UHGV virus genome: UHGV-0208881 | Reading direction: 5' to 3' (one strand) | Length of the DNA: 22,343 bases | Source of the DNA: a virus | Part shown: piece after piece, positions 2,487 through 22,343 of the stretch | Numbering within the stretch: the stretch's first letter is position 1 | Layout: the number at the start of each line of letters is the position of its first letter | Made by a program: the position numbers and the translations under genes | Notes under the pieces: model-generated | Told to the model about the DNA's origin: nothing | Databases searched by the model: none | The model's input: the letters and a program-made list of their open reading frames with translations, nothing else

Positions 2487-2650
2487 TTAATTTGCTCCAG
2501 ACGTAGCAATGCGGAACAAGATGCAACTTGCCCGGCATTGCACTAATGTCAGTTATGATCTGTTAATTATGAGATGAGTCTATGCAAAGAGATCTGTTGA
2601 ATATTGCGTTCTACATATTTGGTTTTTGCACGTTCCTGGTGTTTGCGAAA

Positions 2651-7066: not shown

Positions 7067-7520
7067 TCTTTAGCTCCTCGTATTTTGAGCGCGGTAACTG
7101 ATAAATCGTGATGCCTACAGGCTTTCCATTGCTGGTATAAGCATCATCAAGGTGACCAACACGGGTAGCGCCAAGCAAACGGATAATTGCCCGTCCGTAT
7201 TTCGTGGTGTCAGGAACCATGGTGATGCTGTTAAGGAATGGTGAGTTTTCGAGAAGCCATTTGCAGAATAATCGATGCCCTTGCAGTGCATATTCACCAC
7301 GGAATCCGGGGTCGTACACCGCATGGCATTCAACAACGCTATGCCAGAAGTTACGCACTTCATGAACTCCAGCCAGCACTAATCCTTCGTAGATGCCGAG
7401 ATATACCGCATCAGTCTTGATGTAGTATTTGTCTCCACTGTCTACGATATTTCCCGTGTTTGCCGGGTTGTTGAGGAATTCTGCAAGCTTCACCGGGTTA
7501 TCGATGAGCTTTATGTGCAT
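7041..7520 (-). CDS. Head/tail assembly protein, P22 gp14-like
   Basis: 159-aa ORF in the conserved position between the needle gene and the ejection-protein genes; start overlaps the upstream stop (TAATG). Confidence 0.75.
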   Translation of the reverse strand: MHIKLIDNPVKLAEFLNNPANTGNIVDSGDKYYIKTDAVYLGIYEGLVLAGVHEVRNFWHSVVECHAVYDPGFRGEYALQGHRLFCKWLLENSPFLNSITMVPDTTKYGRAIIRLLGATRVGHLDDAYTSNGKPVGITIYQLPRSKYEELKNVNFPDCQ

Positions 7521-8221
7521 TAGTTGATTAATCCATGTGTTCGTAAGGCGTCTTCCAGTGCTTTGATGCGCTGCCGCGCCTGCTGTAAACCTGTAGCCAT
7601 AGCGGAAACTTCAGACTGCGTATACGTGGTACTGACCGTGTATGCCTGGTTAGCGTTGAATGCGCCGAGAAGTGCCGTTCCGGTTGCTGCTGTCCATCCT
7701 GTCTGACGAGCACCGATAACCTTGGTGCCGCCGACTGAATAGGATGTTGTTACGTTGAGGGGGGATGCCAGCGATTGTGTTGCTGTGGCTGTTTTCGATA
7801 CGTAATCGTCCTGCAATGCAGAAATATTTCCTTCAGCCTCCGTCACTCTACCATCAAGAGCACTGACATCAGCCTGCAAGGTGACTATTTCACCTTCAGC
7901 CGTGGTTAGTCTGACATCCAGCGACGCGATTGCATTGGTATTTGCAGTAATACGGATTTCATGGTCGTCTACGTCGATGCGGAGCTGACGAATTCTTTCT
8001 TCGTGATCAACCAGAATCACATCCTGCTCATCGTTCCTGACTTGTGCATCATAAGCGCCCTGTCCGGCCTCGTTGGCCTTGTTAGCCACGTTACCAACAT
8101 CAGTTCCCTGTGCGATAACGTAAAGCAGATACGACTGCGAGAAGATATTGCGTGGAAGGATTGATGTATCGAGCCGCGTCGCCTGCACAATAACAGGGGT
8201 GTTGAGATTCGAATCAGCCAT
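7520..8221 (-). CDS. Tail needle / plug protein, P22 gp26-like
   Basis: 233-aa ORF (same length as P22 gp26). N-terminus [18 protein letters not shown]...ILPRN and heptad-repeat middle region match the remembered gp26 trimeric coiled-coil needle. Confidence 0.85.
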
Positions 8222-9639
8222 TACTCAATCCTTATCTGGCAGCCAGACAGAGTTACAGGTGACTTCGTGATAACGCGCAATTTGAAGCCGACATTTTTCC
8301 TGATGCGCCCTACTCGCTTCCACAAAACACGCTTGTCGTAAACGAACGGTTCATTCTGCTCAATCATCTGCTCACGACCGTAATTGATGCCGTCAGTGGT
8401 TGCAGAGAGGAACAGGCGGTCAGCGTACTGCGCAACACCAGTCGATGATTCCAACTCCAGATCAAAGCATCTGGCGTTATCCGCTTTGAACAGTGGAGTA
8501 AACAGCAGGTGTTCTTGCTGTAGCCCATACTGGCTGCTGATATCGAACTGCAATTTCCCGGTCACGGATTCCAGCTTATCGCCGCACGTTATCTGATTGC
8601 CTTCGTAAATGAAGTCGATAGCGCGGTACACATCGTCATACAGGCCTGTTTTCAGCACACACCATTGCGGACCATTGGCACTTGAAGATGCGTCGTATAC
8701 GAGGACATGGCGCGGAAGATGGATAATCAGCAACTCATGCGCATCAAATCTCAGAGACTCCATCACGCCATCAGCCAGTTCATCAGCAGTGTAGGAGCGT
8801 AGTATTTTCTCAATACTCGCGCTGGCGATTGGTGATATCTGACCGGAGCCGATGATGTATACAGATGGCGCACCTGTTGCCGGATTGCTGATGAACGCAT
8901 ACGAATCAGCGAACGGTGTTTTGCAGTAAGTCCCGGCAATACCTTTCTGCACCATCAACGATGGCTGGGCGACATACAAAGCAGCACCAACGGTGGTTGC
9001 GCCAGTCAGGGAGAAATACTCAATCGTCGATGAACCAAAGCAGACGATGAAGTCTCGCCATGTGCCGATGCCGATGATGCCGTCAGGCTGTGATTCTGCC
9101 CGATATTGTGCGCTGTAGCGGTCAGGATGCGATTCGTCTTCAAGGTCAGTGATAAACCATGAATCAGTGCCGTCTTTTGACCACGCATAACGCCCACGTA
9201 AGCGAGTAATGTCACGAACAGAACCTAACTCATACTGCGTGAATCCGCTGTCTGTAGGCCAGTTTGAGACGGTTTTAACCGTGCCATCATAGCGATACTC
9301 GACCAGTTGACCATTAACGCCTACCGCCTGTGATGTTCGACCATGCGCCATTGATACGCGACCACTTCCGGCAACATCGCCGACTTCACTTTCTCCTTTG
9401 TAGAGCTTGCCACCACACACGCGATAAACAGCACTCTGTGCCATGTTGTACTCGACGCCGCGAGATACACCGTTCACATCAGAACGTTTGGCAATGCCCG
9501 GGAATGAGCGAAGATATCCGCTGCTGTTAAGGATTTCTTTGGGGGTTGCCAGCATATTCACTGGCAGATAGTCGATATAGTCGGCGTTTCGGAAGTCTTT
9601 ACCGACACCTTTCATAAGCGGAAGTTGCTGAATCGGCAT
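8221..9639 (-). CDS. Tail hub / head-completion protein, P22 gp10-like
   Basis: 472-aa ORF (same length as P22 gp10). N-terminus [49 protein letters not shown] matches remembered gp10. Confidence 0.85.
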
Positions 9640-10139
9640 TATTCGCTCCCGTTATCGCAAGGTTCCTTTCGGTGGAAGTAATTCCAACCGTTCCACTTCG
9701 CCAACTGATTACCGCTACCAATAGGCATACGGTTTGGATAACCGGACTTACATTTAGCGGCTTTTGCTCTGTCCATTGCAGACAGTTTGACGAGTCGCTC
9801 TTTCCCGTATCTGGCAGTGGTTATAAGTTTTGCAGACGCTTCCAGCGCATAATCTGGAGCAATGCGGCAGGCAAGGTTGAAAATGACGGCATTGATAGCG
9901 TTATTTGACAAACCGTGCTCATCGCCAGGATCCGGAGCGACATCTGCATCAGCGAAAATGTAGCCAACGTTGATACCAGGTGACGCATCACCTCCAAGCC
10001 ATTCAGCCATCATCATTTCAAGGTCGTTGACGCCGTCTTCCATGGACTGCGGTTCGACATCGGTTAACGTGGCATTTGATGCCACACCGAGCTTACGTAA
10101 TGCCGCAAGGACTAAATCACCCTTCGTTGTCAGGTTCAT
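9639..10139 (-). CDS. Tail accessory / head-completion protein, P22 gp4-like (start taken at internal Met, 166 aa)
   Basis: ORF track gives 9639..10208 (189 aa), but the Met at 10139 ([21 protein letters not shown]...) gives a 166-aa product matching remembered P22 gp4 length and N-terminus. The upstream ATG has no usable SD. Confidence 0.8.
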
Positions 10140-10347
10140 CTGCTGCCGCCTTAGGTTTTCGACCAGGCTTTTTACGCTGTTTTTCTTCTGGCTCTGGCTC
10201 TGCAACATCCTTCAAAAGGTCATCAGGATGTGAAAACCAGCCAGCATCCAGATATTCCTGAAGCTCTTCGGCTTTCACGATTTCAAAGTCGTAGCCAACG
10301 CCTTTCCACTTCTTCATGTCGCCATGACGAAAGATCATGTGTGTCAT
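10117..10347 (-). CDS. Small hypothetical protein between coat and gp4 (about 76 aa from the SD-supported Met), highly charged K/P/E-rich C-terminal tail
   Basis: ORF track 10117..10395 (92 aa) runs through the coat-gene terminator hairpin. The ATG at 10347 ([10 protein letters not shown]...) has GGAGA 5 nt upstream. C-terminus [27 protein letters not shown]. 3' end overlaps the gp4 start by 23 nt. Confidence 0.4.
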
Positions 10348-10360
10348 GCTTGTCTCCAGA

Positions 10361-10384
10361 TAAAAACGGGAGCCGAAGCTCCCT
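10361..10384 (-). terminator. Intrinsic terminator / attenuator just after the coat gene stop
   Basis: Minus strand reads GGGAGC-TTCG-GCTCCC (perfect 6-bp GC-rich stem, UUCG tetraloop) followed by G-TTTTT-A, a few nt after the coat TGA and just before the next SD. Confidence 0.6.
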
Positions 10385-10391
10385 CTGGTTA

Positions 10392-11687
10392 TCACGCAGT
10401 CTGGTTAGGCAGACCAACACCAATTGCCTCTGGCCGTACAGCACATGCTGAATACCACACAGCAATACGGCACTTACCAGACAGAGTATTGATATCACCC
10501 TGCGTTGCGAAGATGCCGTTAACACCAATACCAGGAATGCTGAAGGAAGACGTTTTCATGCCAGCAAACAGTTCATGGGTTACCGGAATCGGCTGAGACA
10601 GCAGGCGGATTGAGTCATCAGCCCAGAACACGTTAGCGGTGGTTGTTGCCACGTTCAGAACGTTTACCGGAGTGGAATCAGCAAGAGAGGTGTTTACGTT
10701 AGCGTAAGCCTTCTCTTCTTTTGTCAGTGAAGAGTCATCAAGCGCAATCGGTTTCGGCGTGATTTCGATGTGAGTACTATCGATCACACGGGTGATTGAG
10801 AAAGTCGCATCATCAGTCAGCACGTTCTTCGCCATCTGAGACAGGAATTTCACACCAGTGAAGCTGATTTTGTCGCCGCGCTTAAATCCGGTGGTGGAGG
10901 ATACGGTCACCGTTGCAACACGGTTGTCGACGTTCTCCTTGTTACCATCGGTATCAAGGGTGTATGCCTGCGGCTTAAACTTCTGCGCTCCAGACACAGT
11001 TACACCAGTAGCGGTTGACTTGGTAACTGCCGGAAGTTTCGGTGAGCGAAGAATTTCATCAAAGCCAGCAATCTGACGCTGAATAGTACCGTTGCGATAC
11101 GCTTCTTCAGGAACGCGCCCAAAGATGTCACCATCTACCAGGTTGCGGCCTGCTTTGCGGTAATCGTCAGGGTTCAGGAAGTAACTGATGCCCATGTCGC
11201 GGTTTAGCTCACGGGAGAACATCAGGCGCTCTGCATCAGACACAAAATCCCAGCCAGACAGGCCAGTAGATGGACCAATTGCGCGGGTATCGTGAACAAC
11301 AAGCGAGCCCATTTCAGTTGCCTGTTTGGCAATCGCTGACTCAATGTTATTCGCCAGTTTTTTGGCGGATGCCTGGATGCGGCGACGGTAAGAACGCTCA
11401 TCACGCAGGTCATCTGCACGAAGCTCGAAGAAATCGTTATCCGGATCGCCCATGTTGCATTTCACGGAGAGTTCCAGAATCCCGGTTGCGTTGCCAGTTA
11501 AATCCCAGCCAGTCTGGGTTGGCGCTTCCTGCTCAACAGGCATCCACACGGTGTTGCTTGAACGCTGCATGGATTCTGCCGGAGGGGTGTATTTTGTCAC
11601 TTTGGACGCCATTGGCGTCAGGTTCTGGACGGTTTCGATGATTTCATCCAGAGCATACGTGACCAGTTGACCTTCATTTAATGCCAT
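10392..11687 (-). CDS. Major capsid (coat) protein, P22 gp5-like
   Basis: 431-aa ORF (P22 coat is 430 aa). N-terminus [10 protein letters not shown]...DEIIETV and C-terminus [13 protein letters not shown] match remembered P22 coat. Start overlaps the scaffold stop. Confidence 0.9.
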
Positions 11688-12598
11688 TATCGAATTCCTT
11701 TATTCAGTTGCGCCTTAAGCTTGCGGTACGTCTCTACATCCCCTTTGTTTGCTGCCGCTTCCATCTGCTTTTCAATCGCAGAGATATTTGCAGCAACAGC
11801 GTGCCCCTGAATGGGTTCATCAGGTAACGGGGCTTCTGAAACAGGCTTGGCTCGAGGCTTGAGAGTTAAACGTTCTGACAGTCGAGTGAGTTCAATCAGC
11901 GCGGATTGCCCGTCCATCGCCAGCAACTGGCGTGTTTTCTCAGGATTAGCACCAAGGTGATACATGAGAGCAGCGGATTTCTCCGGGAAGAGGCGCATGA
12001 TGTCGGCACCGACTGCTGGCGGCACCAGTTGCATGAATGCATCCTCTTTCTCCTGATAGTCAGGGATATTGAGCTTTTCCGCTGCATCGTAGTGCTTACG
12101 GGCGGCCTCGACGTATTGCGCTGATTGCTGGGTGAACTCCTGAGTTTTGCGGCCCTGCTCGGCGACAGCCTGGCTTCGTGCGTCCATAGCCTTGATCTGC
12201 CATTCACTGTTTGCCTGCTGGAAGGCCGCCAGTGCGCGGCTCTGGTCATAGTCGTACTTAGCCAGTGCGTCTTCGGAAAGATAATCGTTAGGGTCTGGTT
12301 GTTTTGGTAACTCAGGACTCACCCGCAGGTGCTCCGGCAACTCTCCACGCTTAACCGCTTCCATCTGCTGCTCAAGCTCACGCTGGCGTTTGCGTTCGAT
12401 GCGGCGACGGGCAAATTCAGCATTAGTTGCCGGGTCTTGTTTTGGTTTCTCATCGTCTTTCAGGACAATCTCGAAGCCTTCTTCCTGACCTGCGTTGTCG
12501 TTGGCATTATCGACAACTAAGCCATCAGCAGATGCCGCTGCATGATTGCCGGGCAGGGTTAATTCTTCAGAAGCCTGAATGTCGGTGGTTTGTTCCAT
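11687..12598 (-). CDS. Scaffolding protein, P22 gp8-like
   Basis: 303-aa ORF (same length as P22 gp8). Matches remembered gp8 over the central [26 protein letters not shown] block and the C-terminal coat-binding region [11 protein letters not shown]. Confidence 0.9.
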
Positions 12599-12611
12599 GA
12601 TTAACTCTCTC

Positions 12612-14777
12612 TTATTGAGGTGTCTCGGCTACTCCGCCGGAGGGTATTTGAACTTGACGCATAAGATTCGCGAAATCCATGCGTTGTGAATGAGTCTGGT
12701 CTGCATCTTTAAGAAGCAGCTCAGCGTTAGCACGAGCATCTTTGCTGCGCTGTTGCTGGAATTGACCTACGAGCTTGAGGTACTCACGCAGTTCTGCCTG
12801 CTTGTCGAGGTCCATATTGTTGAAGATTTCCGCAATCTTCGCGGCGTTGAGTTGGTTTTGTGCTTCAACCTTGGCAGCTTCAACCTGAATCTGCGCCTGT
12901 TGGTTCTCTGCCTTGAGCAATTCAGCCTGACCTTGCAGAAGGATACCCTGCGCCTGAATTTGCTCTGCTGATGGCTGCTGCGGCTGCTGTTGCGCCTGCT
13001 GCACCATCTCCATCTCTTCAGGTGTTTCTGGTTTCTTCAGCCCCATCATCACCAGTTGCTTGTTCGCGTACTCTCGCATCATCTCGACGCCTTTACCGTC
13101 AAGCAGCGTGAAGTATTGCAGCATCAGCATCTGGAACTCTGGAGTACCTTGCGGAACCTTGGTGAGCAACTCCTGAATCTCTGCGCGGTTCTGTTCCTTC
13201 ATACTCTGGAAGGATGGCCCAACGTCCGTATAGCACTCATAGCGACCGCGAATGTCGTTGAGTGTGACCACATTGCCGGACTGGTAATCGACAACTTGCG
13301 CGTAGAGTTGAACGTCTTTCTCGCTTCCATCTTCGAGTGTCAGCGTTACATGACGAGGAACGTCATAAATATCGTTGACCATTGAGGCATAAATCTCGCC
13401 ATCACGTCGCATTGCGGTAGCCAGGTTATCCTGAAACACGTATGTCTCAAGGTCTGCCCGCATGTTCAGTTGATTGACGGTATCGAAAGCGACCTGACCA
13501 TTTGCCGCCTGCGCATCCACGCCAAGACTAGCCACCTCTTTCACTGCGTTGGTGGCAGCCTCAAGCATGTAAGCGTTGGCTTGCGGCACTTCAGGGTTTT
13601 CCATGTAGGAGATTGGACCAATCGGCAGGTCGTTACCGTTTTCATCGGTCCTGTTCTGCAGATAGTACGGATAGTCATCATTTCCACCGTACATGTATTC
13701 GTAGCCTTCGATTTGCTCAGGGAAGAAGGTCGGTTTCTTCTTCGGTGAACGAGCAACAATATCGGCGTTGAACGACATGATCATGTTACGAAGGCGTTGA
13801 CCGTCTTTCGTCAGCCTTACCACGCCCTCGTAGCACTCCTTGTCACCAGCGAATGACCATTCGCCGTACACAGGAACGATTGGGATATGCTCTCCAGCTA
13901 TCTTCTCGCGGTCTTTCAGTATCTGCGTGCAGGTGATGATCGACTTATACACACGCCGACGCTTGACCTTACGCTCTGCTACCTTAATGAATCCACGATT
14001 AGCCAGGTCGTCGATGACGTCTTTGATATCCTGCTGGTAATAGCTGACCGGCTCACCTGTCAGCGGGTCGCGGTAGATGAAGACCTTCTCTTTCTTCTCT
14101 TCGACCTCGTAATACTCAGCGACGTAGACGACATCATTCGATACCCACGGAAACAGCCATGTATCGTTCGGATTCTGGAAAGATGGCAAGGTGTCCGGAT
14201 CAATACCGTAATCCTCTGCGAACTCTTTCCAGCCATTGCGCGACAAGGCGTTAATCACCGTGCAGTGCTTAGCGTCGCTCTTATCCATCTGCTTGCTGTT
14301 GGCGTCCCATATGACGTGTGAGCAGGCTTCATGAATTGGCAGGCGTCTGATTACCTGATTGTTGCTTGTTGGGTCGTTGTCTTCGTACTGTGTGACCAGA
14401 CGCCATGCACCAACGCCGGACTCTATCTGCTCACGAACGCCAACGTTAACGGCAATCTTTGCCGTGTTATGGCGCATATCAGTACGATACATCCCCATCA
14501 ACACATCGGCTGCATCAGGATTAGCGCCGTCTTTGGGTCGGAAGAGAACGTCGATAGGGTTCCGGCGCATCTCTGCGACCAGTTTCCTGACCACCGGGCG
14601 AACAACATCGAATTGTCCGCGATATTGCAGGGTGGTGTAGTTTGATAGCCAGTCATCCCATTGCGACACTCGGCTAAAATACAGGTCATTTGTCGCCTCG
14701 GTTCTGGCTTCATCGCTCGCCATCCAGTCTGCGTCAAACTTACACAGAATGGAATTGAGTCTGTTTTCGTCGGCCAT
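12612..14777 (-). CDS. Portal protein, P22 gp1-like
   Basis: 721-aa ORF (P22 portal about 725 aa). Conserved blocks [40 protein letters not shown] and the long C-terminal coiled-coil barrel region. Start ATG is directly adjacent to the terminase stop. Confidence 0.9.
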
Positions 14778-16277
14778 TTAAGTTCTCCGTGCGATGGGCC
14801 TGATTGGGGCTGGTATCTTTTTCTCTTTTGGTTTTTTGATGTCACGCATCATTTTTGCGAAGCGGCGCATCATGTATGCATAGCGAACGGCTGAGAGAAC
14901 GTCGTCGTTAAGCTTGACGATTTTCCCGTTTTCATCACGGTGATAGAGGCGGAACTCCTCAAAGAATGGCTCACAGGTGTTGAATACTTTGAAGCGACCA
15001 TCAAGCATCATGTCGCGCAATTCAGTGATGCCTGGCTCAACAGCGTTACCGCCATCAGGCCATGTCGCATGCTCCTGCAACATCATAAAACCAGCGTCTG
15101 CATACTGCCCTTTGAGCTGCTCACCGCCGCCCTTCTCATGCTGGTTTCCGTCATGAGGCCATGCGGTTGGCACTTTATGCGCCCATGATTTAACAGCTCC
15201 CCACGCCTGAACGGCTGTCTTTTCTTTCGCCTTCCACACGCGTGAAACGTAGATTGTGTCTGCGTCCTTATCCCACCAAAGCTGAACCTGCGCCTGAGGG
15301 TGATCCCATCCGAAATCCATCCCGCCAATTACGTAGAAGTGATCAGGGCACTCAAACGGCTGACACTTAATCGTCTCTTCCGGTATCTGGAAGATTCGAC
15401 CGCTACCCATCGTAGGAATACCGCGAGCACGCGCCTCTCTCTCATGCTCGGGATAGGATGCGATGATTTGCTCTTTCTGCTCGTCGGTGTAGTGCTCAGC
15501 GTCATAGATGGTCATGTTGACCACTTTCTGCGACTTGCTGGGATTCTTCAGGAACTTGGTAACAACGTCAGACATCCCCATCAGCGGGGTAAACGTCAGA
15601 ATTGAGAATTGCCCGTATTTGTTGGTACGGGTAAGCCCTTCGCCATAAATGCTGTATGGTGGTTCTTCGTCAAACCACACGCCATGGATTGTGTCACCCT
15701 GCCAGCGAGCGCGGCCTTGCGAGTATGGCTTGAAGTAGCAGATTGAAATGCCATCTTCAACGCCATCAGCCGTGTGATGCTTAACCAGAAGATGATCAAC
15801 AAGGTTCGGAAAGAAAGGAGACTTCTTCCAGCTAATGATGTCTTCTTTCGGTATGGAACCGTAGCCAGGCTCATCATTCTCTTCAATACGACCGCACAGG
15901 ATGCGTTGAGTCGTTTTGGTTACCGTCTCGTTTGTCTCGCCACCAATCCAGAAGACAACAGGCTCATAGAAACGCTTACCTTTCCACTCCCCGCCATATT
16001 TACCATCAGCAGGATAGCCTTTTGTGCCCGGATAACGCCCGGTAAGGTGAAACGCGACTTCAGCAGCACCAGTAAATGACTTGCCAAGCTGGTTACCAGC
16101 CATAAAACATCGCTCTGGATAGTCATGCCCGGCGTCGATGAACTCACGCTGTTTGCTGTATGGCGTAAATTCATATAGCAGGTGTGTGTTCCGGTAGTTC
16201 TCTTCTTCTTCGAGTAGTTCGAGCAATTCGATTTGCTCTTCGTCGCTCAGGTTATCAAGAATCGCGTCCAGTTCCAC
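14778..16277 (-). CDS. Terminase large subunit, P22 gp2-like (headful packaging ATPase/nuclease)
   Basis: 499-aa ORF (same length as P22 gp2). N-terminus [37 protein letters not shown] matches remembered gp2; Walker A-like GNQLGKS. Confidence 0.9.
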
Positions 16278-16749
16278 GGTTGAATAGCTCCTTGATACGA
16301 GAGCGCCGTTTATCGCGATCTCCCTTATCAGGTGTCACGTCTTCAACTTGCGACTGCTCTTTGAGGCCCAAATCACGGGCGATGATGTTAGCGTTGAGAA
16401 GGTCAGCGGCTGCGCCAGAGAATTTCTGGTCGTAGATGACCTGTTCTGCTCGCGTAACGACTTCAGATAAATCTTCTCGCAGGCGATATGTGCGCCATGT
16501 TTCAAGTGTCACATCAATGAACAGAGTGAGGCCTGTAATAGTCATCGCTCGCATCTTGGCGATAGGCTCTTGTATCACTTCACCCTGATACGAGAACGCC
16601 TTCATCTCCCATAGCGGGTTAGCTTCTACCCACTCGAAGTATTCACAACAAGCAGCCCACAGCGCCTCAGGCGATTCGAATTTAGGATTTCGCCCATGAC
16701 TACTGCGGGCCTCCCAAAATCGGTTGCCCTTTGGTGCTGCCATATTCAT
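16255..16749 (-). CDS. Terminase small subunit, P22 gp3-like; true start possibly at the third codon (16743), giving 162 aa
   Basis: ORF begins [24 protein letters not shown]; remembered P22 gp3 begins [10 protein letters not shown] and is 162 aa. 3' end overlaps the large-terminase start by 23 nt. Contains the pac sequence. Confidence 0.85.
16449..16476 (-). other. pac site (headful packaging recognition sequence) inside the small-terminase gene
   Basis: Minus strand reads GAAGATTTATCTGAAGTCGTTACGCGAG, matching the P22 pac sequence as I remember it, in the codons for EDLSEVVTR. Consistent with P22-type terminase and absence of lambda cos/Nu1/A. Confidence 0.6.
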
Positions 16750-16766
16750 CTCACTTAATCGTTATT

Positions 16767-16946
16767 TCAGGTTAAGGACTCTTTCGCGCCTTCAATCAGT
16801 TGCTGCTTCAGCAATTCGAGTGTGCCAATCGCCTCGCATAAACTGATTTCACCATCGTAATCATGGATGACGCTTTCCAGCCTCTCGTATAGCTCTTGAG
16901 TAATTGGGAATTTCTTCTCCTTACCCAAATTGATTACGCGGCTCAC
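16767..16946 (-). CDS. Possible small ORF (59 aa, GTG start) between the 80-aa ORF and the small-terminase gene; not in the ORF track
   Basis: Hand translation of the minus strand: GTG at 16946 preceded by GGAG about 6 nt upstream, 1 nt after the TGA of the upstream ORF; product VSRVINLGKEKKFPITQELYERLESVIHDYDGEISLCEAIGTLELLKQQLIEGAKESLT, stop TGA at 16767-16769. Fills an otherwise empty 198-bp gap. Confidence 0.3.
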   Translation of the reverse strand: MSRVINLGKEKKFPITQELYERLESVIHDYDGEISLCEAIGTLELLKQQLIEGAKESLT

Positions 16947-16947
16947 A

Positions 16948-17190
16948 TCATGCTCCGGTGGTGAACAGGTCTAACGCTTCCTTCGATTTACGCACCGCTT
17001 CAAATGTGCGGATCGTGATATCTGAATTAGCGCCACCTGACTGGAAGTGAATTTTGAATAGCTCAAGCTTCAGTTCGTCAGTGCCAATGAACTGAAATGC
17101 TTCCTCTGCGGCTGCGTTCTGGTTCATGACCAGCTTGTAAATCTCTAACTGGAATTTCTGTTCTTCAGTCATGGGAATAATCTCTGCCAT
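16948..17190 (-). CDS. Hypothetical small protein (80 aa), function unknown
   Basis: ORF with GGAGCC SD about 6 nt upstream of ATG; acidic, helical-looking sequence; co-oriented with the late operon. Confidence 0.55.
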   Translation of the reverse strand: MAEIIPMTEEQKFQLEIYKLVMNQNAAAEEAFQFIGTDELKLELFKIHFQSGGANSDITIRTFEAVRKSKEALDLFTTGA

Positions 17191-17215
17191 TGTTGGCTCC
17201 GTTTATCCGTTAAAA

Positions 17216-17237
17216 GGGATATCAGTTAAGTTATCCC
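17216..17237 (-). terminator. Weak candidate hairpin (GGGATA-N10-TATCCC) followed by TTTT on the minus strand, about 25 nt upstream of the 80-aa ORF start
   Basis: Perfect 6-bp inverted repeat read from sequence; only four T follow on the minus strand, so terminator function is uncertain. Confidence 0.25.
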
Positions 17238-17523
17238 GTGTAGGGTATAAGCCATTATCAAAGCCACTCTGTAGGGAATGGCTTTTGTGATGGCATCACT
17301 TACTCTTTACGCTGCTATCCCACTCATCCCGGAATTTTGATGGGTTATTGAAACCTTCTGCTGACATAACAACTCCTTCAATGTTTGGCTGAAATTAGGA
17401 TGTCTTTCCATCAGTCCGCCACCACAAAGAATCTTTTTTGCCATAAGGCAGGAGGTTCATCTTTCAGTGGCTGCCAGTGTTATTTCCCCACTTACTGGCT
17501 TGGGTTGTTTCGCTGTACTGCCG

Positions 17524-18066
17524 TTAATTAGTGAGTCCGGGGATTATGGTTTGCCCGTGCTGTTCAAGGCGTTCAATTCTCGCCAGTAGCTGAGGCTTCT
17601 TAATTTTTCCCCAGCGATTAAGCAGTCGACCTGACATGCTGGCAACATCCTTCTCTTTCATGTACTCCAGCATTACGGCATTTCTCTCTTCTTCAAATTG
17701 ACGATGACCAACCTGAAGCATGGCGTACATCCAGTTAAATGCGTTGATGTAAGCAATTTTGATACGCATTGCTTCTTTTTTGGTGTAGGACATAACCAAA
17801 AGCATCAACCCATCCTTGCGGAGACGGTAGAATTTTTGCGGCTTACCATTCTGTAACTCATTGTTTTTATAGCAAAGCTCAAAGTTGAGCTTTGTATCAA
17901 ACTCAGGAGGGCAAGCTTCTATGGTTCGTTCAATGTCACGAACTACGTTCTTCGGCAGCTTTCCAAATGCTTTTGCCACCATAAAAGAATCTGTAACCGG
18001 ATCGTTGTTTGCCACAAAAATCAGATCTCGGAAATCAATGCCGTTAACGATAGTTGGATAATGCAT
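17524..18066 (-). CDS. rha: Rha-family phage regulatory protein (antirepressor-like)
   Basis: 180-aa ORF. Motifs VTDSFMVAKAFGK...NVVRDIE and KDGLMLLVMSYTKKEAMRIKIAYINAFNWM fit the phage pRha domain consensus as I remember it. Sits between Rz and terminase, as P22 Rha does. Confidence 0.8.
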   Translation of the reverse strand: MHYPTIVNGIDFRDLIFVANNDPVTDSFMVAKAFGKLPKNVVRDIERTIEACPPEFDTKLNFELCYKNNELQNGKPQKFYRLRKDGLMLLVMSYTKKEAMRIKIAYINAFNWMYAMLQVGHRQFEEERNAVMLEYMKEKDVASMSGRLLNRWGKIKKPQLLARIERLEQHGQTIIPGLTN

Positions 18067-18210
18067 CAGTGATCACCTTTTAGTGATGAACCTTGTCACA
18101 CAGGATTCCGGCCCACAGAAAGGCACCGATCACCAAACCGGCATCCTCAAGGGTCATCCTGAAAGGTTCTGTGTTCATAAGTCGCGCGTGTGAAGCGCGT
18201 TTACTGCGGA

Positions 18211-18238
18211 CATAAAAAAGCCCCGCATCGCGAGGCTC
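18211..18238 (-). terminator. Intrinsic terminator downstream of the lysis cassette
   Basis: Minus strand reads AGCCTCGCGATGCGGGGCT (8-bp stem including one G-U pair, 3-nt loop) followed by TTTTTTAT, about 30 nt after the Rz stop. Confidence 0.55.
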
Positions 18239-18269
18239 ATTAAATTGACTTTGTGATTTGCAAAAAAAT

Positions 18270-18707
18270 TTATTTCAGGCACTGAGTCCTGATGTACTCC
18301 TGTAGGTAGTTAACCTGCGCGGTTATCCTGTCGATTCCACTTCGGAGACGGTAATAATTGAGTTCAGCATCTGCTGTAAGTCTTGGGCTTTCTCCATCGC
18401 CCATGCCGCTGGCTCCGGTCGTTGACTTTGCACAGGTGGCGGCGACTTGCAGGCGCTTACGCCCAGCAGAAACATCAGCACGGAGACTTTCGATAGTCGC
18501 GTTAGCATCAGCAAGCTCCTTTGTGTATCTGGCGTCGAGTTCTGCTACGTCACGTTGACGCTCCTGCATGTCAGCGATTATGGATGTGGCTTTATCGCGC
18601 TGCTCTTTGTAGGTCATGGCGTTATCACGGTAATGATTAACAGCCCATGACAGACAGACGATGATGCAGATAACCAGAGCGGAGATAATCGCGGTTACTC
18701 TGCTCAT
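18270..18707 (-). CDS. Rz: Rz-type inner-membrane spanin (i-spanin), 145 aa
   Basis: N-terminus [30 protein letters not shown] (TM segment) as in lambda Rz / P22 gp15; start overlaps the R stop (ATGA). Beyond about residue 35 it differs from lambda Rz as I remember it, and the 145-aa length equals P22 gp15. Confidence 0.85.
18323..18514 (-). CDS. Rz1: Rz1-type outer-membrane lipoprotein spanin (o-spanin), embedded in the +1 frame of Rz
   Basis: 63-aa ORF wholly inside Rz in a different frame; signal peptide [22 protein letters not shown] with lipobox ending in Cys, then a Pro-rich mature region ([13 protein letters not shown]). Confidence 0.75.
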
Positions 18708-19180
18708 ACCTCAATCTCTCTGACCGTTCCGCCTGCTTCTTTGAATTTTGCAATCAGGCTGTCAGCCTTATGCTCGAACTGACCATAACCAGCGCCCGGC
18801 AGTGAAGCCCAGATATTGCTGCAACGGTCGATTGCCTGACGGATATCACCGCGATCAATCATCGGTAAAGCGCCACGCTCTTTAATCTGCTGTAGTGCAA
18901 CAGCGTCCTGACTTTTGGAAGAGAAGTCTTTCAGGCCAAGTTGCTTGCGGTAGGCATCCCACCAACGGGAAAGAAGCTGGTAACGTCCGGCTGCTGTTGA
19001 TTTGAGTTTTGGGTTTAGCGTGACAAGTTTGCGAGGGTGATCTGAGTAATCAGTGAATAGCTCCCCGCCAACAATGACGTCATAACCATGATTTCTGGTT
19101 TTCTGTCGTCCGTTATCAGTTCCCTCTGACCACGCCAGCATATCGAGGAACGCCTTACGTTGATTATTGATTTCCACCAT
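18704..19180 (-). CDS. R: Endolysin, lambda R-type lytic transglycosylase
   Basis: 158-aa [42 protein letters not shown]...; essentially identical to lambda R as I remember it. Start overlaps the S gene 3' end. Confidence 0.95.
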
Positions 19181-19487
19181 CTTCTACTCCGGCTTTTTTA
19201 GCAGCGAAGCGTTTGATAAGCGAACCAATCGAGTCAGTACCGATGTAGCCGATAAACACGCTCGTTATATAAGCGAGATTGCTACTTAGTCCGGCGAAGT
19301 CGAGAAGGTCACGAATGAACCAGGCGATAATGGCGCACATCGTTGCGTCGATTACTGTTTTTGTAAACGCACCGCCATTATATCTGCCGCGAAGGTACGC
19401 CATTGCAAACGCAAGGATTGCCCCGATGCCTTGTTCCTTTGCCGCGAGAATGGCGGCTAACAGGTCATGTTTTTCTGGCATCTTCAT
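19164..19487 (-). CDS. S: Holin / antiholin, lambda S-type with dual start (S107 from Met1, S105 from Met3)
   Basis: 107-aa [37 protein letters not shown]...; the Met-Lys-Met dual-start motif and sequence match lambda S. Confidence 0.95.
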
Positions 19488-19507
19488 GTCTTACCCCCAA
19501 TAAGGGG
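19488..19507 (-). promoter_or_regulatory. sdi-type stem-loop and SD upstream of the S dual start
   Basis: Minus strand CCCC-TTATT-GGGGG-TAAGAC-ATG-AAG-ATG; the stem-loop abutting the ribosome-binding region is the arrangement known in lambda to set the S107:S105 ratio. Confidence 0.5.
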
Positions 19508-19884
19508 ATTTGCTCTATTTAATTAGGAATAAGGTCGATTACTGATAGAACAAATCCAGGCTACTGTGTTTAGTAATCAGATTTGTTCGTGACCGATATG
19601 CACGGGCAAAACGGCAGGAGGTTGTTAGCGCAACCTCTTGCCACCCGCTTTCACGAAGGTCATGTGTAGAAGGCCGCAGCATAACTATCACTGATGAATT
19701 CAGGATAGCCAGTGGCTACGGCTCAGTTTGGGTTGTGCTGTTGCTGGGCGGCGATGACGCCTGTACGCATTTGTTGATCCGGTTCTGCTTCCGGTATTCG
19801 CTTAATTCAGCACAACGGAAAGAGCACTCGGTGCATTTAAGCCAAGCCCCATAAGGGAGAATGCTCTTACCTGTTGCACAGATA

Positions 19885-19941
19885 TAAAAAATCCCGAAAC
19901 CGTTATGCAGGCTCTAACTATTACCTGCGAACTGTTTCGGG
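19885..19941 (-). terminator. tR'-type intrinsic terminator of the short pR' transcript
   Basis: Minus strand CCCGAAAC...GTTTCGGG (with inner GCAGG/CCTGC stem) followed by ATTTTTTAT, about 194 nt downstream of the pR' start as in lambda. Confidence 0.7.
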
Positions 19942-20078
19942 ATTGCATTTTGCAGACCTCTCAGCCTGCGATGGTTGGAGTTCCAGACGATACGTCGAAG
20001 TGACCAACTAGGCGGAATCGGTAGTAAGCGCCGCCTCTTTTCATCTCACTACCACAACGAGCGAATTAACCCATCGTT
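19885..20078 (-). ncRNA. Lambda 6S-type short late leader transcript (pR' to tR', about 194 nt)
   Basis: Bounded by the pR' -10 at 20085-20090 (start about 7 nt downstream) and the tR' U-tract; sequence matches the lambda pR'-tR' region as I remember it. Transcript ends are inferred. Confidence 0.55.
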
Positions 20079-20113
20079 GGGTCAAATTTACCCAACTTTA
20101 TTCAATAAGTCAA
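20060..20113 (-). promoter_or_regulatory. Late promoter pR' with Q-utilisation (qut) site
   Basis: Minus strand TTGACT (-35, 20113-20108), 17-bp spacer, TAAATT (-10, 20090-20085), then TGACCCAACGATGGG pause region; matches lambda pR'/qut layout, about 40 bp downstream of the Q stop. Confidence 0.8.
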
Positions 20114-20155
20114 TATCATGCCGTTAATATGTTGCCATCCGTGGCAATCATGCTG

Positions 20156-20779
20156 CTAACGTGTGACCGCATTCAAAATGTTGTCTGCGATTGACTCTTC
20201 TTTGTGGCATTGCACCACCAGAGCGTCATACAGCGGCTTAACAGTGCGTGACCAAGTGGGTTGGGTAAGGTTTGGGATTAACATCGTCACAGCGCGATAT
20301 GCTGCGCTTGCTGGCATCCTTGAATAGCCGACGCCTTTGCATCTTCCGCACTCTTTCTCGACAACTCTCCCCAACTGCTCTGTTTTGGCTATATCAACCG
20401 CACGGCCTGTACCGTGGCAATCTCTGCATCTTGCGCCCGGCGTCGCGGCACTACGGCAATAATCCGCATAAGCGAATGTTGCGAGCACTTGCAGTACCTT
20501 TGCCTTAGTATTTCCTTCGAGCTTTGCCACACCACGGTATTTCCCCGATACCTTGTGTGCAAATTGCATCAGATAGTTGATAGCCTTTTGTTTGTCGTTC
20601 TGGCTGAGTTCATGCTTACCGCAGAATGCAGCCATTCCGAATCCGGCTTGTGATTGTGCCATCCCCATAGCAGCCATCACATCAGTACCGGAAAGAGAGT
20701 CAGAAGCCGTGGCCCGTGGTGAGTCGCTCATCATCGGGCTTTTTGGCGAATGAAATTTAGCTACGCTTTCGAGTCTCAT
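20156..20779 (-). CDS. Q: Late-gene antiterminator Q (lambda type)
   Basis: 207-aa ORF MRLESVAKFHSPKSPMMSDSPRATASD...CRDCHGTGRAVD...CGRCKGVGYS...; essentially identical to lambda Q as I remember it, including the zinc-binding Cys cluster. Confidence 0.95.
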   Translation of the reverse strand: MRLESVAKFHSPKSPMMSDSPRATASDSLSGTDVMAAMGMAQSQAGFGMAAFCGKHELSQNDKQKAINYLMQFAHKVSGKYRGVAKLEGNTKAKVLQVLATFAYADYCRSAATPGARCRDCHGTGRAVDIAKTEQLGRVVEKECGRCKGVGYSRMPASAAYRAVTMLIPNLTQPTWSRTVKPLYDALVVQCHKEESIADNILNAVTR

Positions 20780-20964
20780 CGTCTTCCCTTTTTGCCTGGC
20801 GTGACCATCAGGACGCCGTTAACGATTACGTGACGCTCGCCTTTGCTGTCTCGGTTGTACTTGAGCACTGTTCCTCTTGCGCAGGAAAGCATCCTCGCCA
20901 CTTCGGTCTGATTGCCTCGTGTCTGGATAAGAAGCTCTGGTATCGTTTGAATTGTGGCGTTCAT
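20776..20964 (-). CDS. ninH: NinH-like small DNA-binding protein
   Basis: 62-aa ORF; TIPELLIQTRGNQTEVARMLSCARGTVLKYNRD resembles lambda NinH (Fis-like HTH) as I remember it. 4-nt overlaps with both neighbours, immediately upstream of Q. Confidence 0.8.
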   Translation of the reverse strand: MNATIQTIPELLIQTRGNQTEVARMLSCARGTVLKYNRDSKGERHVIVNGVLMVTPGKKGRR

Positions 20965-21323
20965 ACGTTCTCCAGTTCGGTGATTTTTATTCCAAGCCTT
21001 CCGCCTGGTACTTTCACACCACGAATTACGCGAATGTCATCGAATTGCTCGTCGTCTTCCGCAAATCCGGCGTGGATAAGGGAGTCGAGTAATCCTTTCA
21101 GGATGTTATCGAGGTCGCGGCGGCGGGAGTCTGGAACGTCTGCGATGACTTTGATGCGGAGTCGTGATTTGGTGAAAATGTCTAACTTGAGTTGGCGGAT
21201 GATTTGCTGAACGTCTTTTCGGTATTTCTGGCCTTTATCGCTGATGTAATATTGGCTTCCCCGTCTTCGCCAGTAGGTGTTCACCGACGGCGGGTATGGA
21301 AGCACAAACTGATATTCGTTCAT
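20961..21323 (-). CDS. rusA: RusA-family Holliday junction resolvase
   Basis: 120-aa ORF (same length as E. coli RusA). Motifs LPYPPSVNTYW and DVPDSRRRDLDNILKGLLDSL match the RusA catalytic Asp-containing region. Confidence 0.9.
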   Translation of the reverse strand: MNEYQFVLPYPPSVNTYWRRRGSQYYISDKGQKYRKDVQQIIRQLKLDIFTKSRLRIKVIADVPDSRRRDLDNILKGLLDSLIHAGFAEDDEQFDDIRVIRGVKVPGGRLGIKITELENV

Positions 21324-21610
21324 GACTTAATCTTCCCCTCCTTCAGCAGTATCGCCTGCGTCCTGATTACGCCTTCGAGGTGGTAAAGTCTGGCGTCTTT
21401 GTTGTCGAGGTTATGGGTGCGTCGGTCGATTTCATCGTGACACGCGCTACAAGCCCATGCGCCGATCAGGTCGTCAGGCTTCATTCCAGTTCCGCAAATT
21501 CCAGCCATCCGGTAATGTGCCAGAACTGTAGTTTCAGGGTTGCCATTGCATACGCCGTAAATACGTACCTGGCATTCTCTGCCGCGCGCTTCTTTGCGTA
21601 GGTTAGCCAT
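21320..21610 (-). CDS. YbcO-like protein (DUF1364 family, Cys-rich putative metal-binding nuclease)
   Basis: 96-aa ORF; ARGRECQVRI.GVCNGNPET.VLAH ... ACSACHDEIDRRTH resembles E. coli DLP12 YbcO as I remember it; sits directly upstream of rusA as in DLP12. Confidence 0.8.
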   Translation of the reverse strand: MANLRKEARGRECQVRIYGVCNGNPETTVLAHYRMAGICGTGMKPDDLIGAWACSACHDEIDRRTHNLDNKDARLYHLEGVIRTQAILLKEGKIKS

Positions 21611-21815
21611 TTACCTTCCCTCGCAACTGAAGAATTGACTGAAGGTCTTTTTTAATAAATATGCGAGTGCGAATTGAGCAGTAGTTTTCCTTCATTCTGG
21701 CGTAGTAATAGTCCTTTCGTTGTTTAAGCTTGTTGGCATCCGCTGTCATCCAGTCTTTTACAGCAAACTTAATTAACCAGCGGTGGCAGAGATACCATTT
21801 CAGGTAATCACTCAT
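21603..21815 (-). CDS. Hypothetical small basic protein (70 aa), nin region
   Basis: ORF whose ATG overlaps the NinD stop (ATGAGTGA) and whose stop overlaps the YbcO-like start by 8 nt. Sequence not recognised; does not match lambda NinE as I remember it. Confidence 0.5.
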   Translation of the reverse strand: MSDYLKWYLCHRWLIKFAVKDWMTADANKLKQRKDYYYARMKENYCSIRTRIFIKKDLQSILQLRGKVNG

Positions 21816-21984
21816 CGTCTTCTTCCTCGTACATTGAGCTATTCGGATCGCTCATCAGTTCTGCGCAGCAGTGCTCACACACGTGAACTTCCAGCACATG
21901 CAGCTTCTGACCGCAGTTAGCGCACGTTAAAGCTCGCTCGGCGCTTTCTTTCTGGTATTGAAGGGATTGGGATGGGCTAAGCAT
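21808..21984 (-). CDS. ninD: NinD-like zinc-ribbon protein (58 aa); not in the ORF track
   Basis: Hand translation of the minus strand: MLSPSQSLQYQKESAERALTCANCGQKLHVLEVHVCEHCCAELMSDPNSSMYEEEDDE, closely matching lambda NinD as I remember it; CxxC...CxxCC motif. Start overlaps the upstream stop (TAATG). Confidence 0.8.
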   Translation of the reverse strand: MLSPSQSLQYQKESAERALTCANCGQKLHVLEVHVCEHCCAELMSDPNSSMYEEEDDE

Positions 21985-22343
21985 TATTGGATTCTCTGCA
22001 TCATGAGAAAGACAATCATGGCGGCGCGGAGGGGATTTTCATGTATAGCTCGCTTAGATTTACAGTAGGCCACACCGCGTGCACCCCACTCGTCTTCATC
22101 GAGATTGATAATGCTAATCCTGTATTTTTCAATAATCGGCCATGCGTCTGCTGGATTTGCGCATGGGTTAAAGGATCCGCGCTCAACTTCTACTTCAACT
22201 GCGTCTCCGTTTACAATGTCTCCCTCAAATGAGATAAACACCATCGCGCCATTCTCACCTTCTTTGTAATCCGGTGATCCGTTATGAATGGCTTCGAATA
22301 CCGCCACGTTAATTTCAAAATCACTTAACTGTGAATAATCCAT
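21984..22343 (-). CDS. Hypothetical nin-region protein (119 aa, possibly NinX/DUF2591-like); start codon lies at the window edge so the N-terminus may be incomplete
   Basis: ORF 21984..22343 with its ATG as the last three bases of the window; family assignment is a weak recollection only. Confidence 0.45.
   Translation of the reverse strand: MDYSQLSDFEINVAVFEAIHNGSPDYKEGENGAMVFISFEGDIVNGDAVEVEVERGSFNPCANPADAWPIIEKYRISIINLDEDEWGARGVAYCKSKRAIHENPLRAAMIVFLMMQRIQ

Follow-up and report, generated by a model that had tools for sequence, protein, structure and literature searches.

A lambda-type Q-S-R region joined to a P22/HK97-type Rz/Rz1 pair is an ordinary lambdoid mosaic boundary

The region described here lies in UHGV virus genome UHGV-0208881, of which a stretch of 22,343 nucleotides (the window) was analyzed. 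Very probably, the region serves late control and lysis in a temperate E. coli phage of the P22-like (Lederbergvirus) type, with a combination of alleles known first from HK97 and HK022; no observation speaks against this identification. The lysis cassette is intact, standard, and of the already known HK97 type: lambda-type Q, S, and R are followed by a joint inside Rz, beyond which Rz and the embedded Rz1 are of the P22/HK97 type. A contiguous lambda-type R and P22/HK97-type Rz are found in about 58 phage records, among them HK97, HK022, and Sf6, and in 983 of 5,426 complete E. coli genomes (~18%). Thus, the joint is an ordinary and already described mosaic boundary. The window is an example of textbook lambdoid mosaicism, in which the lysis parts reassort at a short conserved block in Rz while the spanin partners stay paired.

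Q, S, R, and Rz with its embedded Rz1 are all encoded on the minus strand (Table 1). Every reading frame of the lysis region is intact and the parts carry the hallmarks of their families; we assume from the intact frames that they would function in the phage. Scans for tRNA genes and Rfam families found none in the window; the stretch from Q to S therefore lacks the tRNA genes that Sf6 and mEp506 have there.

Table 1. Features of the late-control and lysis region, with window coordinates.
Feature	Position	Strand	Basis
Q late-gene antiterminator, lambda type, 207 aa	20156-20779	minus	protein identity and Pfam
pR' late promoter with Q-binding region	20085-20113	minus	promoter scan
tR' terminator of the short 6S leader transcript	19886-19941	minus	alignment and RNA folding
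S holin/antiholin, lambda class I, 107 aa	19164-19487	minus	identity and Pfam/TIGRFAM profile
R endolysin, lambda-type lytic transglycosylase (predicted), 158 aa	18704-19180	minus	identity and PDB sequence search
Rz i-spanin, 145 aa	18270-18707	minus	Pfam and identity
Rz1 o-spanin lipoprotein (predicted), 61 aa, within Rz in the +1 frame	18323-18508	minus	Pfam and identity
Conserved block inside Rz, codons 12-35, crossover zone, 68 bp	18605-18672	minus	segment identities
Terminator-like hairpin and T-run, just 3' of Rz	18218-18238	minus	terminator scan

The earlier note on this DNA had judged the part from Q through pR', tR', and S to R to be lambda-type, and the comparisons bear this out. The lambda-like sequence begins at 20786, 7 nt upstream of the Q ATG, and runs at 94-100% nucleotide identity to ~18605, through Q, pR', tR', S, and R and into the first part of Rz; a short interval immediately past tR' (19827-19867) is the exception. 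The Q protein is identical to lambda Q at 205 of 207 residues and to P22 gp23 at 198 of 207 (96%), and it matches the Pfam Antiterm family, PF03589, with E=1.4e-56. The promoter scan gives pR' as TTGACT and TAAATT separated by a 17-nt spacer. Two bases are changed relative to lambda, one in the spacer at 20096, where P22 has the same change, and one in the discriminator at 20080. We infer that the pR' transcript starts at 20078, the first base of the pause element AACGAT; AACGATGGGTTAATT occupies 20078-20064 on the minus strand. The roles of pR', the Q-binding region, and the pause element were assigned from established lambda biology. The tR' element is a hairpin followed by six U residues and is identical to lambda in the alignment. 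Its RNA folds at -26.9 kcal/mol (z = -5.35), and none of 200 shuffled sequences folds as well. A Q family protein, a cognate promoter, the AACGAT pause, and the tR' hairpin with its U-run together characterize a lambda-type Q antiterminator.

S is identical to lambda S at 106 of 107 residues, to IME10 S at 107 of 107, and to P22 gp13 at 89%. It is matched above cut-offs by the profiles PF05106 (E=2.4e-30) and TIGR01594, holin_lambda (E=2.6e-37). The protein opens MKMPEK, with the dual start Met1-Lys2-Met3, for which ATGAAGATG lies at 19487-19479; membership of the S family and the dual start place it among the lambda class I holins. R is identical to lambda R at 155 of 158 residues and to HK97 gp71 at 157 of 158, and is unrelated to P22 gp19 (17% identity). 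No match to R was found in Pfam or NCBIfam; its identity was settled through a PDB sequence search, in which residues 1-158 matched the lambda lysozyme structure 1AM7 (E=3.6e-104). Glu19, the catalytic residue of lambda R, is present in the translation. R is a predicted lambda-type lytic transglycosylase.

Past R the affinities change. Rz is 98% identical to its IME10 counterpart, 96% (139/145) to that of HK97, and 91% to P22 gp15, against 58% for lambda Rz, and so is not lambda Rz over its full length, in keeping with the earlier reading. Residues 28-143 match PF03245 (E=1.9e-36). The lambda Rz i-spanin family is recognized by an N-terminal membrane anchor, a periplasmic coiled-coil domain that fits the Rz profile, and periplasmic cysteines for intermolecular disulfides; with this profile match, a hydrophobic N-terminal anchor, and the periplasmic Cys92 and Cys143, Rz belongs in it. 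Rz1, in a direct comparison of the +1-frame translations, is identical to P22 Rz1 at 59 of 61 residues and 34% identical to lambda Rz1, and it matches PF06085 (E=2.2e-20). It has a lipobox, V-S-A-C, in which Cys20 is its sole cysteine; lambda Rz1, in contrast, has a second cysteine, C29 (PMC6139136). Embedded o-spanins of the HK97 type are encoded by small lipoprotein genes lying wholly in the +1 frame of Rz, with a lipobox and a proline-rich mature part, and Rz1 is predicted to be one of them. Kongari et al. 2018 (PMC6139136) placed the Rz proteins of P22, HK97, Sf6, CUS-3, and epsilon34 in the lambda i-spanin family and the Rz1 proteins of these phages in a separate "HK97" o-spanin family. 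The Rz1 gene lies wholly inside the P22/HK97-type segment, as does the hairpin 3' of Rz, which has a 9-bp stem with 6 G-C pairs and a T-run. The hairpin is conserved in P22, and a "terminator" is annotated at the matching position in the mEpX1 and HK75 records.

That the recombination joint lies inside Rz, as had been proposed, is confirmed. From 18673 to about 18300 the window is 93-99% identical to P22 in nucleotide sequence, and the same range holds for the part of Rz past the joint, with Rz1, taken as 18604-18214. In the first Rz segment, 18673-18707, identity is 97% to lambda and 54% to P22; in the 68-bp block, 18605-18672, it is 97% and 94%, respectively; and in the remainder, 18270-18604, it is 55% and 94%. 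Lambda and P22 are themselves 92.6% identical within the 68-bp block and 53-54% identical on either side of it. A three-way comparison of window, lambda, and P22 gives 153 informative sites in Rz. Eighteen of the first 19 are lambda-like and one is P22-like, and those that follow are almost all P22-like. The maximum chi-square is 97.5, with the breakpoint at 18630/18604, that is, Rz codons 26-35 (permutation p <= 1e-4). It had also been suggested that Rz shares its first 30-35 residues with lambda Rz and then diverges, with the length of the P22 protein. The divergence and the P22 length of 145 aa stand; the extent of the lambda start needs correction, since only the first 12 codons are lambda-specific and residues 13-30 are identical in lambda and P22.

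The position of the block has a precedent in the Sf6 record, which annotates "bsq7; boundary sequence" at the homologous spot. The Sf6 bsq7 maps to 18638-18591 with 44 of 48 positions matching and overlaps the 68-bp block. The bsq7 site, a short stretch conserved at a mosaic transition among alleles that otherwise differ, qualifies as a lambdoid boundary sequence, a notion attributed to Clark et al. 2001 (cited in PMC3029335). With other phages, alignments repeatedly begin or stop at 18591, 18673, and 18707.

The genes farther downstream are P22-like, as had been recognized. Pfam matches identify the P22-type gp3/gp2 terminase, portal, scaffold, coat, gp4, gp10, gp14, gp7, gp20, and the head-binding domain of the tailspike. 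They form a P22-like virion and headful-packaging module in the P22 gene order, with Pfam matches throughout except for the protein in the gp26 position. The protein in the gp16 position, at 797 aa, is longer, and it has an SLT domain. At the nucleotide level the module is 78.8% identical to P22 over 7518-17204 and 95% identical to IME10. Searches of the window by blastn, tblastn, and for cosN found no lambda cos, Nu1, A, B, or E.

One of the closest parallels to the gene arrangement is found in HK97 and HK022 (NC_002167, AF069308), in which Q, the holin gp70, the transglycosylase gp71, and the Rz gp72 follow in the same order, with Q of 207 aa, R of 158 aa, and Rz of 145 aa as in the window. 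The switch from lambda to P22 type occurs inside Rz in the same way. HK97 is 95.4% identical over 18156-19658 and 96.5% over 20056-21611. The window's lambda-type segment with tR' and the leader, 19659-20055, is absent from HK97, and P22 likewise has no lambda-type leader there. HK97 and HK022 are cos-packaging siphoviruses, whereas the window runs on into P22-type virion genes. The combination of a P22-type virion, lambda-type S and R, and the window's Rz/Rz1 allele is found in IME10, Dewey, Sf6, CUS-3, and Sf101, which are P22-like phages of E. coli and Shigella, and in the Salmonella phage epsilon34 (Lederbergvirus and relatives). IME10 is 95-97.5% identical to the window over 7992-20786, small cassettes aside, and a single alignment with Dewey spans 18211-20796 at 96.6% identity. 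The genes between Rz and terminase in IME10 and Dewey differ from those of the window, however, and the receptor-binding part of the tailspike sets the window apart from its P22-like relatives. In Sf6, unlike in the window, Q is of the phage-21 type and tRNA genes precede S.

As for the two reference phages, lambda (NC_001416, 43886-46427) is 94-100% identical to the window from Q through pR', tR', S, and R to about codon 34 of Rz. Lambda Rz has 153 aa, with a 21-nt insertion and ~55% identity to the window after codon 34, and lambda continues into bor and cos, whereas the window continues into P22-type genes. In P22 (AF217253, genes 13-19-15), gene 15 (Rz) is 93-99% identical in nucleotides over its distal part, as is Rz1; the first 12 codons of gene 15 differ from those of the window's Rz, and the P22 endolysin, gp19, is an unrelated lysozyme.

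Carriers of the joint were counted with a 301-nt probe spanning it (18480-18780), at least 80% coverage defining a carrier. This probe cleanly separates the four arrangements: lambda-type, P22-type, and RrrD-type arrangements reach 63%, 64%, and 76%, below the cut-off. An earlier probe, 18560-18760, was dropped as too permissive, since lambda-type alleles can reach 85% coverage with it. The arrangement is found also in CUS-3 and epsilon34. The best phage match, IME10, covers 72% of the window at 96.3%, and the best E. coli match, a prophage of strain 88-3493, covers 88% of 16000-22343 at 96.8%. Uniform identity to one known phage across 16-21 kb, which the earlier note had named as telling against its own view, is nearly reached with these two: identity is near-uniform over 16.6-21 kb, interrupted by minor cassette replacements and by a few short bins where it falls to 67-87%.

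Three further claims did not survive the comparison. The joint does not separate a lambda lysis module from a P22 head module, given that the same Rz allele occurs in the cos-packaging phages HK97 and HK022 and that sequence shared with HK97 runs in patches to ~17109, well past Rz. Neither is it a mark of this genome; identity to HK97, Sf6, IME10, Dewey, and the 88-3493 prophage is 92-98% on both sides, with no drop at the joint. Finally, the pairing of a lambda R with a P22-like spanin had been called non-canonical, which is contradicted by the annotation of bsq7 in Sf6 and by the company that the Rz/Rz1 allele keeps. In ev099, phiKp_30, and Stx2 phages the same Rz allele, at full length, stands behind an RrrD endolysin, and in P22 it stands behind gp19, so that three unrelated endolysin types, lambda-R, P22-gp19, and RrrD, adjoin it. 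That holin and lysin types assort freely in P22-like phages is described in the epsilon34 genome paper (PMC2629481), epsilon34 being a P22-like phage with a lambda-type Q and qut.

Relative to lambda and P22, Rz is a mosaic of codons 1-12, contiguous with the lambda-type R, codons 12-35, common to all alleles, and a distal part that, with the whole of Rz1, is the P22/HK97 allele. Most likely, homologous or homeologous exchange inside the conserved 68-bp block gave rise to the joint, in line with the boundary sequence idea; recombination between sequences that have diverged is promoted by Red (PMC2327257). The prevailing alternative model for lambdoid mosaicism (PMC3029335, PMC2327257) holds that recombination is illegitimate and independent of homology; a working spanin would then have been selected, and the block would reflect functional constraint or common descent and not a substrate of recombination. 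The block does encode the end of the anchor and the juxtamembrane residues, which are identical at the protein level in all alleles, and it might have resulted from repeated crossovers, or from membrane-proximal constraint, and not be the cause of the joint. However, all five lambda-P22 differences in the aligned block are at third codon positions, and nucleotide identity, 92.6% in the block, is 53-54% in the flanks. Constraint on the protein by itself would not keep synonymous sites; the pattern seems to fit recent shared DNA ancestry better. Moreover, several allele combinations break at the same block edges (18591; 18673, 18707). On these grounds, illegitimate recombination appears rather unlikely as the origin of the joint.

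When only lambda and P22 serve as references, the switch is sharp and highly significant, as it would be if a recent, lineage-specific recombination between a lambda-like and a P22-like phage had made a new chimeric Rz and an unusual lysis cassette. This is highly improbable given the identical arrangement, at 92-98% on both sides, in HK97, HK022, Sf6, CUS-3, epsilon34, IME10, and Dewey and the numbers of phage records and genomes given above. The flanks are ~3-6% diverged from those of other carriers, and so the joint predates the divergence of the carriers; it is old and is passed on as a unit in a large population of lambdoid phages and prophages. An assembly chimera deserves almost no credence and was rejected because the joint is ubiquitous: the same contiguous sequence recurs in independently sequenced phages, dozens of them, and in complete genomes numbering in the hundreds, and all reading frames in the window are intact. 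It is tempting to see in the 68-bp block a maintained recombination hotspot at which lambdoid phages exchange endolysin cassettes to one side and Rz-distal/Rz1 pairs to the other, and the window would then be one more natural product of it. We regard this as unlikely; the hotspot idea was proposed in general form in 2001 and would be new only if active maintenance were demonstrated.

Near-identity to lambda suggests how the cassette would work. The lambda-type Q would modify RNA polymerase at pR' and allow readthrough of tR'; S, producing holin and antiholin from its dual start, would time permeabilization of the inner membrane; R would degrade the cell wall; and the Rz/Rz1 spanin pair would then disrupt the outer membrane. 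With the crossover placed between membrane anchor and periplasmic domain, the interacting Rz C-terminus and Rz1 come from one source, which is probably why the joint is tolerated; nor would spanins have to match a particular endolysin. A lambda-type endolysin with a P22/HK97-type spanin is among the commonest arrangements in E. coli prophages. The importance of the joint is small beyond correct annotation, and it should not be flagged as unusual or as a newly formed chimera. Beyond the cassette, the window has a conserved non-coding island at 17150-17600, for which the Rfam E-value scan returned only a chance microRNA match.

Alignment of the window with phages λ (NC_001416) and P22 (AF217253), followed along sliding identity profiles, places a switch from λ-type to P22-type sequence inside Rz, the i-spanin gene. 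From 20786 down to ~18605, the window is 94–100% identical to λ, the lone exception being a small substituted patch at 19827–19867, directly past tR'. From 18673 to ~18300, it is 93–99% identical to P22. P22 also matches the nucleotides of Q (88–98%) and of the holin gene S (~91%), lacks the λ-type leader (19659–20055), and encodes an endolysin, gp19, unrelated to R (17% protein identity). Protein identity to λ is 205/207 for Q, 106/107 for S, and 155/158 for R, and 58% and 34% for Rz and Rz1, the latter being the o-spanin lipoprotein embedded in the +1 frame of Rz. Rz is 91% identical to its P22 counterpart, and direct comparison of the +1-frame translations matches Rz1 to P22 at 59 of 61 residues. 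The absence of λ cos, Nu1, and A claimed by the earlier note is borne out, and neither B nor E was found in the window.

Features of the window; every gene lies on the minus strand
Feature	Position	Strand	Basis or note
NinX, NinF, YbcO-family nuclease, RusA, NinH	upstream of Q	minus	nin region
Q	20156-20779	minus	PF03589
pR' promoter	20113-20085	minus	promoter scan
tR' hairpin and U-run	19941-19886	minus	RNA fold
S	19164-19487	minus	TIGR01594
R	18704-19180	minus	full-length match to 1AM7
Rz	18270-18707	minus	PF03245
Rz1, embedded in Rz	18323-18508	minus	PF06085
Terminator-like hairpin	18238-18218	minus	terminator scan
Rha-family ORF	17524-18066	minus
DUF2560 ORF	16948-17190	minus
P22-type small and large terminase subunits, then complete virion gene set in P22 order		minus
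Tailspike, last of virion set	69-2486	minus

Within Rz, 153 sites are informative, that is, λ and P22 differ and the window sides with one or the other. Of the first 19, 18 are λ-like and 1 is P22-like, and nearly all the rest are P22-like. The maximum chi-square, 97.5, puts the breakpoint between 18630 and 18604, in Rz codons 26–35 (permutation p ≤ 1e-4). Profiles and chi-square thus confirm the earlier proposal that a λ-type Q-to-R segment is followed by a P22-like Rz with the joint inside that gene. The first 30–35 Rz residues are as in λ, as had been noted, yet residues 13–30 are equally those of P22; only the first 12 codons are λ-specific. The breakpoint falls within a 68-bp block, 18605–18672, in which λ and P22 are 92.6% identical, versus 53–54% in either flank. 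All five λ/P22 differences in the aligned block are at third codon positions.

The same joint is widespread. HK97 carries the same Q, holin, transglycosylase, and 145-aa Rz, and matches window positions 18156–19658 at 95.4% in one unbroken block spanning the joint. In the 100-nt bins on both sides of the joint, identity is 92–98% for HK97, Sf6, IME10, Dewey, and the E. coli 88-3493 prophage. A 301-nt probe (18480–18780) is covered to a maximum of 63% by λ-type, 64% by P22-type, and 76% by RrrD-type sequences, RrrD being another endolysin type; carriers, defined by coverage of at least 80%, number 58 phage records and 983 of 5,426 complete E. coli genomes. The phage carriers include mEpX1, g341c, HK140, HK75, HK544, Sf101, mEp043, and CUS-3. 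A shorter probe of lower stringency aligns end to end (98–100% of its length) in HK97, HK022, epsilon34, Sf6, IME10, and Dewey.

Several pairings of alleles occur. λ R is found with this P22/HK97-type Rz and with λ Rz; an RrrD-type endolysin accompanies the same full-length Rz in phiKp_30, phage 1W, Stx2 phages, and ev099; P22 gp19 accompanies the P22 Rz allele; and the conserved block alone lies beside other endolysins. Phage alignments repeatedly begin or end at 18591, 18673, or 18707, so mosaic boundaries recur at the block edges and at the gene start. In GenBank, Sf6 has a misc_feature, "bsq7; boundary sequence", annotated within its Rz, which maps over the breakpoint interval (18638–18591, 44/48 identity). 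PMC3029335 credits the boundary-sequence concept to the HK620 paper by Clark et al. (2001). The Rz joint is a very common mosaic boundary, already described, in an intact, standard lysis cassette.

As to its origin, we lean towards exchange between homologous or homeologous sequences inside the conserved block, because its synonymous sites are conserved, the flanking DNA is unrelated or about 54% identical, and several allele combinations reuse the block edges. Diverged sequences are known to be efficient substrates for recombination by λ Red (PMC2327257). The rival explanation is that illegitimate recombination was followed by selection and that the block is conserved for other reasons; on the three grounds named, exchange within the block is the somewhat more probable.

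We infer the function of the cassette from its near-identity to characterised λ parts and its intact hallmarks, as follows. The pause element AACGAT is present at pR', and tR' is unchanged from λ (fold −26.9 kcal/mol, z = −5.35). Q would act with a pR' differing from that of λ at two bases. One, at 20096, is A to G in the spacer/Q-binding region, with the same G in P22; the other, at 20080, is T to C in the discriminator directly upstream of the transcript start. S begins with the Met-Lys-Met dual start, and R, matched to the λ lysozyme structure at E=3.6e-104, retains Glu19. Rz is anchored at its N-terminus, and its Cys92 and Cys143 are periplasmic; Rz1 has a VSAC lipobox, without a second cysteine. 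In λ, a single intermolecular disulfide, at Rz C152 or Rz1 C29, suffices for function (PMC6139136). By analogy, Cys143, near the Rz C-terminus, would provide this disulfide.

The crossover sits between the Rz membrane anchor and periplasmic domain, upstream of Rz1; one source therefore supplied both Rz1 and the Rz C-terminus, two partners that have to interact. Spanins act once the wall is degraded. The pairing of λ R with a P22-like spanin had been called non-canonical, a view that does not hold: this Rz allele adjoins three unrelated endolysin types, which indicates that endolysin–spanin matching is unneeded, and the cassette is therefore not exceptional in this respect. Kongari et al. 2018 assigned the Rz proteins of P22, HK97, Sf6, CUS-3, and epsilon34 to the λ i-spanin family and their Rz1 proteins to a separate "HK97" o-spanin family (PMC6139136); the split seen in the window is the same. 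Three holin and three lysin types assort among six P22-like Salmonella phages, and epsilon34 is a P22-like phage with λ-type Q and qut (PMC2629481).

On its left, the λ-like block ends at 20786, 7 nt before the start codon of Q, and the λ record has a misc_recomb annotated at the homologous position, 43884–43885. The nin region upstream is HK97-like (95–98%), with HK97-like ninH, rusA, and YbcO genes where λ instead has ninI. Rightward, HK97-shared sequence persists in patches to ~17109, and small cassettes form a patchwork between Rz and terminase. The Rz joint is therefore not the border of λ lysis and P22 head modules that it had been taken for, and the earlier interpretation is, overall, partly supported. 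Taken whole, the window combines known cassettes in a new way, as almost every lambdoid genome does.

Compared with λ, the patch just 3' of tR' has ~33 substituted nucleotides and an 8-nt deletion. Dewey and the E. coli 88-3493 prophage, both λ-like, also diverge in the bin containing it (80–82%), and many E. coli genomes contain the exact 19790–19910 sequence at 100% identity, with 264 of 706 places on plasmids. Between Rz and terminase, the Rha-family regulator has a C-terminal ORF11CD3 domain; its cassette is 96–99% identical in the E. coli 88-3493 prophage, and different genes take its place in IME10, HK97 (KilA-N), and Dewey (HNH endonuclease). Directly past this ORF, an island of ~100–130 nt (17401–17500) is 98–99% identical in P22, HK97, Sf6, IME10, and Dewey, among which both its flanks vary. 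It matched no Rfam family and might represent a further boundary sequence, or else a conserved element with a regulatory role. Among the eight reference loci compared, 17301–17400 has no match, and 16801–16900 matches only P22 (94%) and Sf6 (93%); the latter segment lies inside a 59-aa ORF (16767–16946) with no Pfam hit.

The 805-aa tailspike has a P22 head-binding domain (residues 1–113). Its receptor-binding part (residues 115–805) matches just 5 phage records, the best being Salmonella phage Vi01 tailspike 3 and phage KEP4 at 38% protein identity, each from a record of about 157 kb. Matches so few and distant indicate a receptor specificity rare for a P22-like phage. The protein occupying the place of ejection protein gp16 (2651–5044, minus strand) has 797 aa, versus about 609 aa for P22 gp16 by record coordinates, with an SLT lytic transglycosylase domain at its N-terminus (PF01464, E=2.9e-25).
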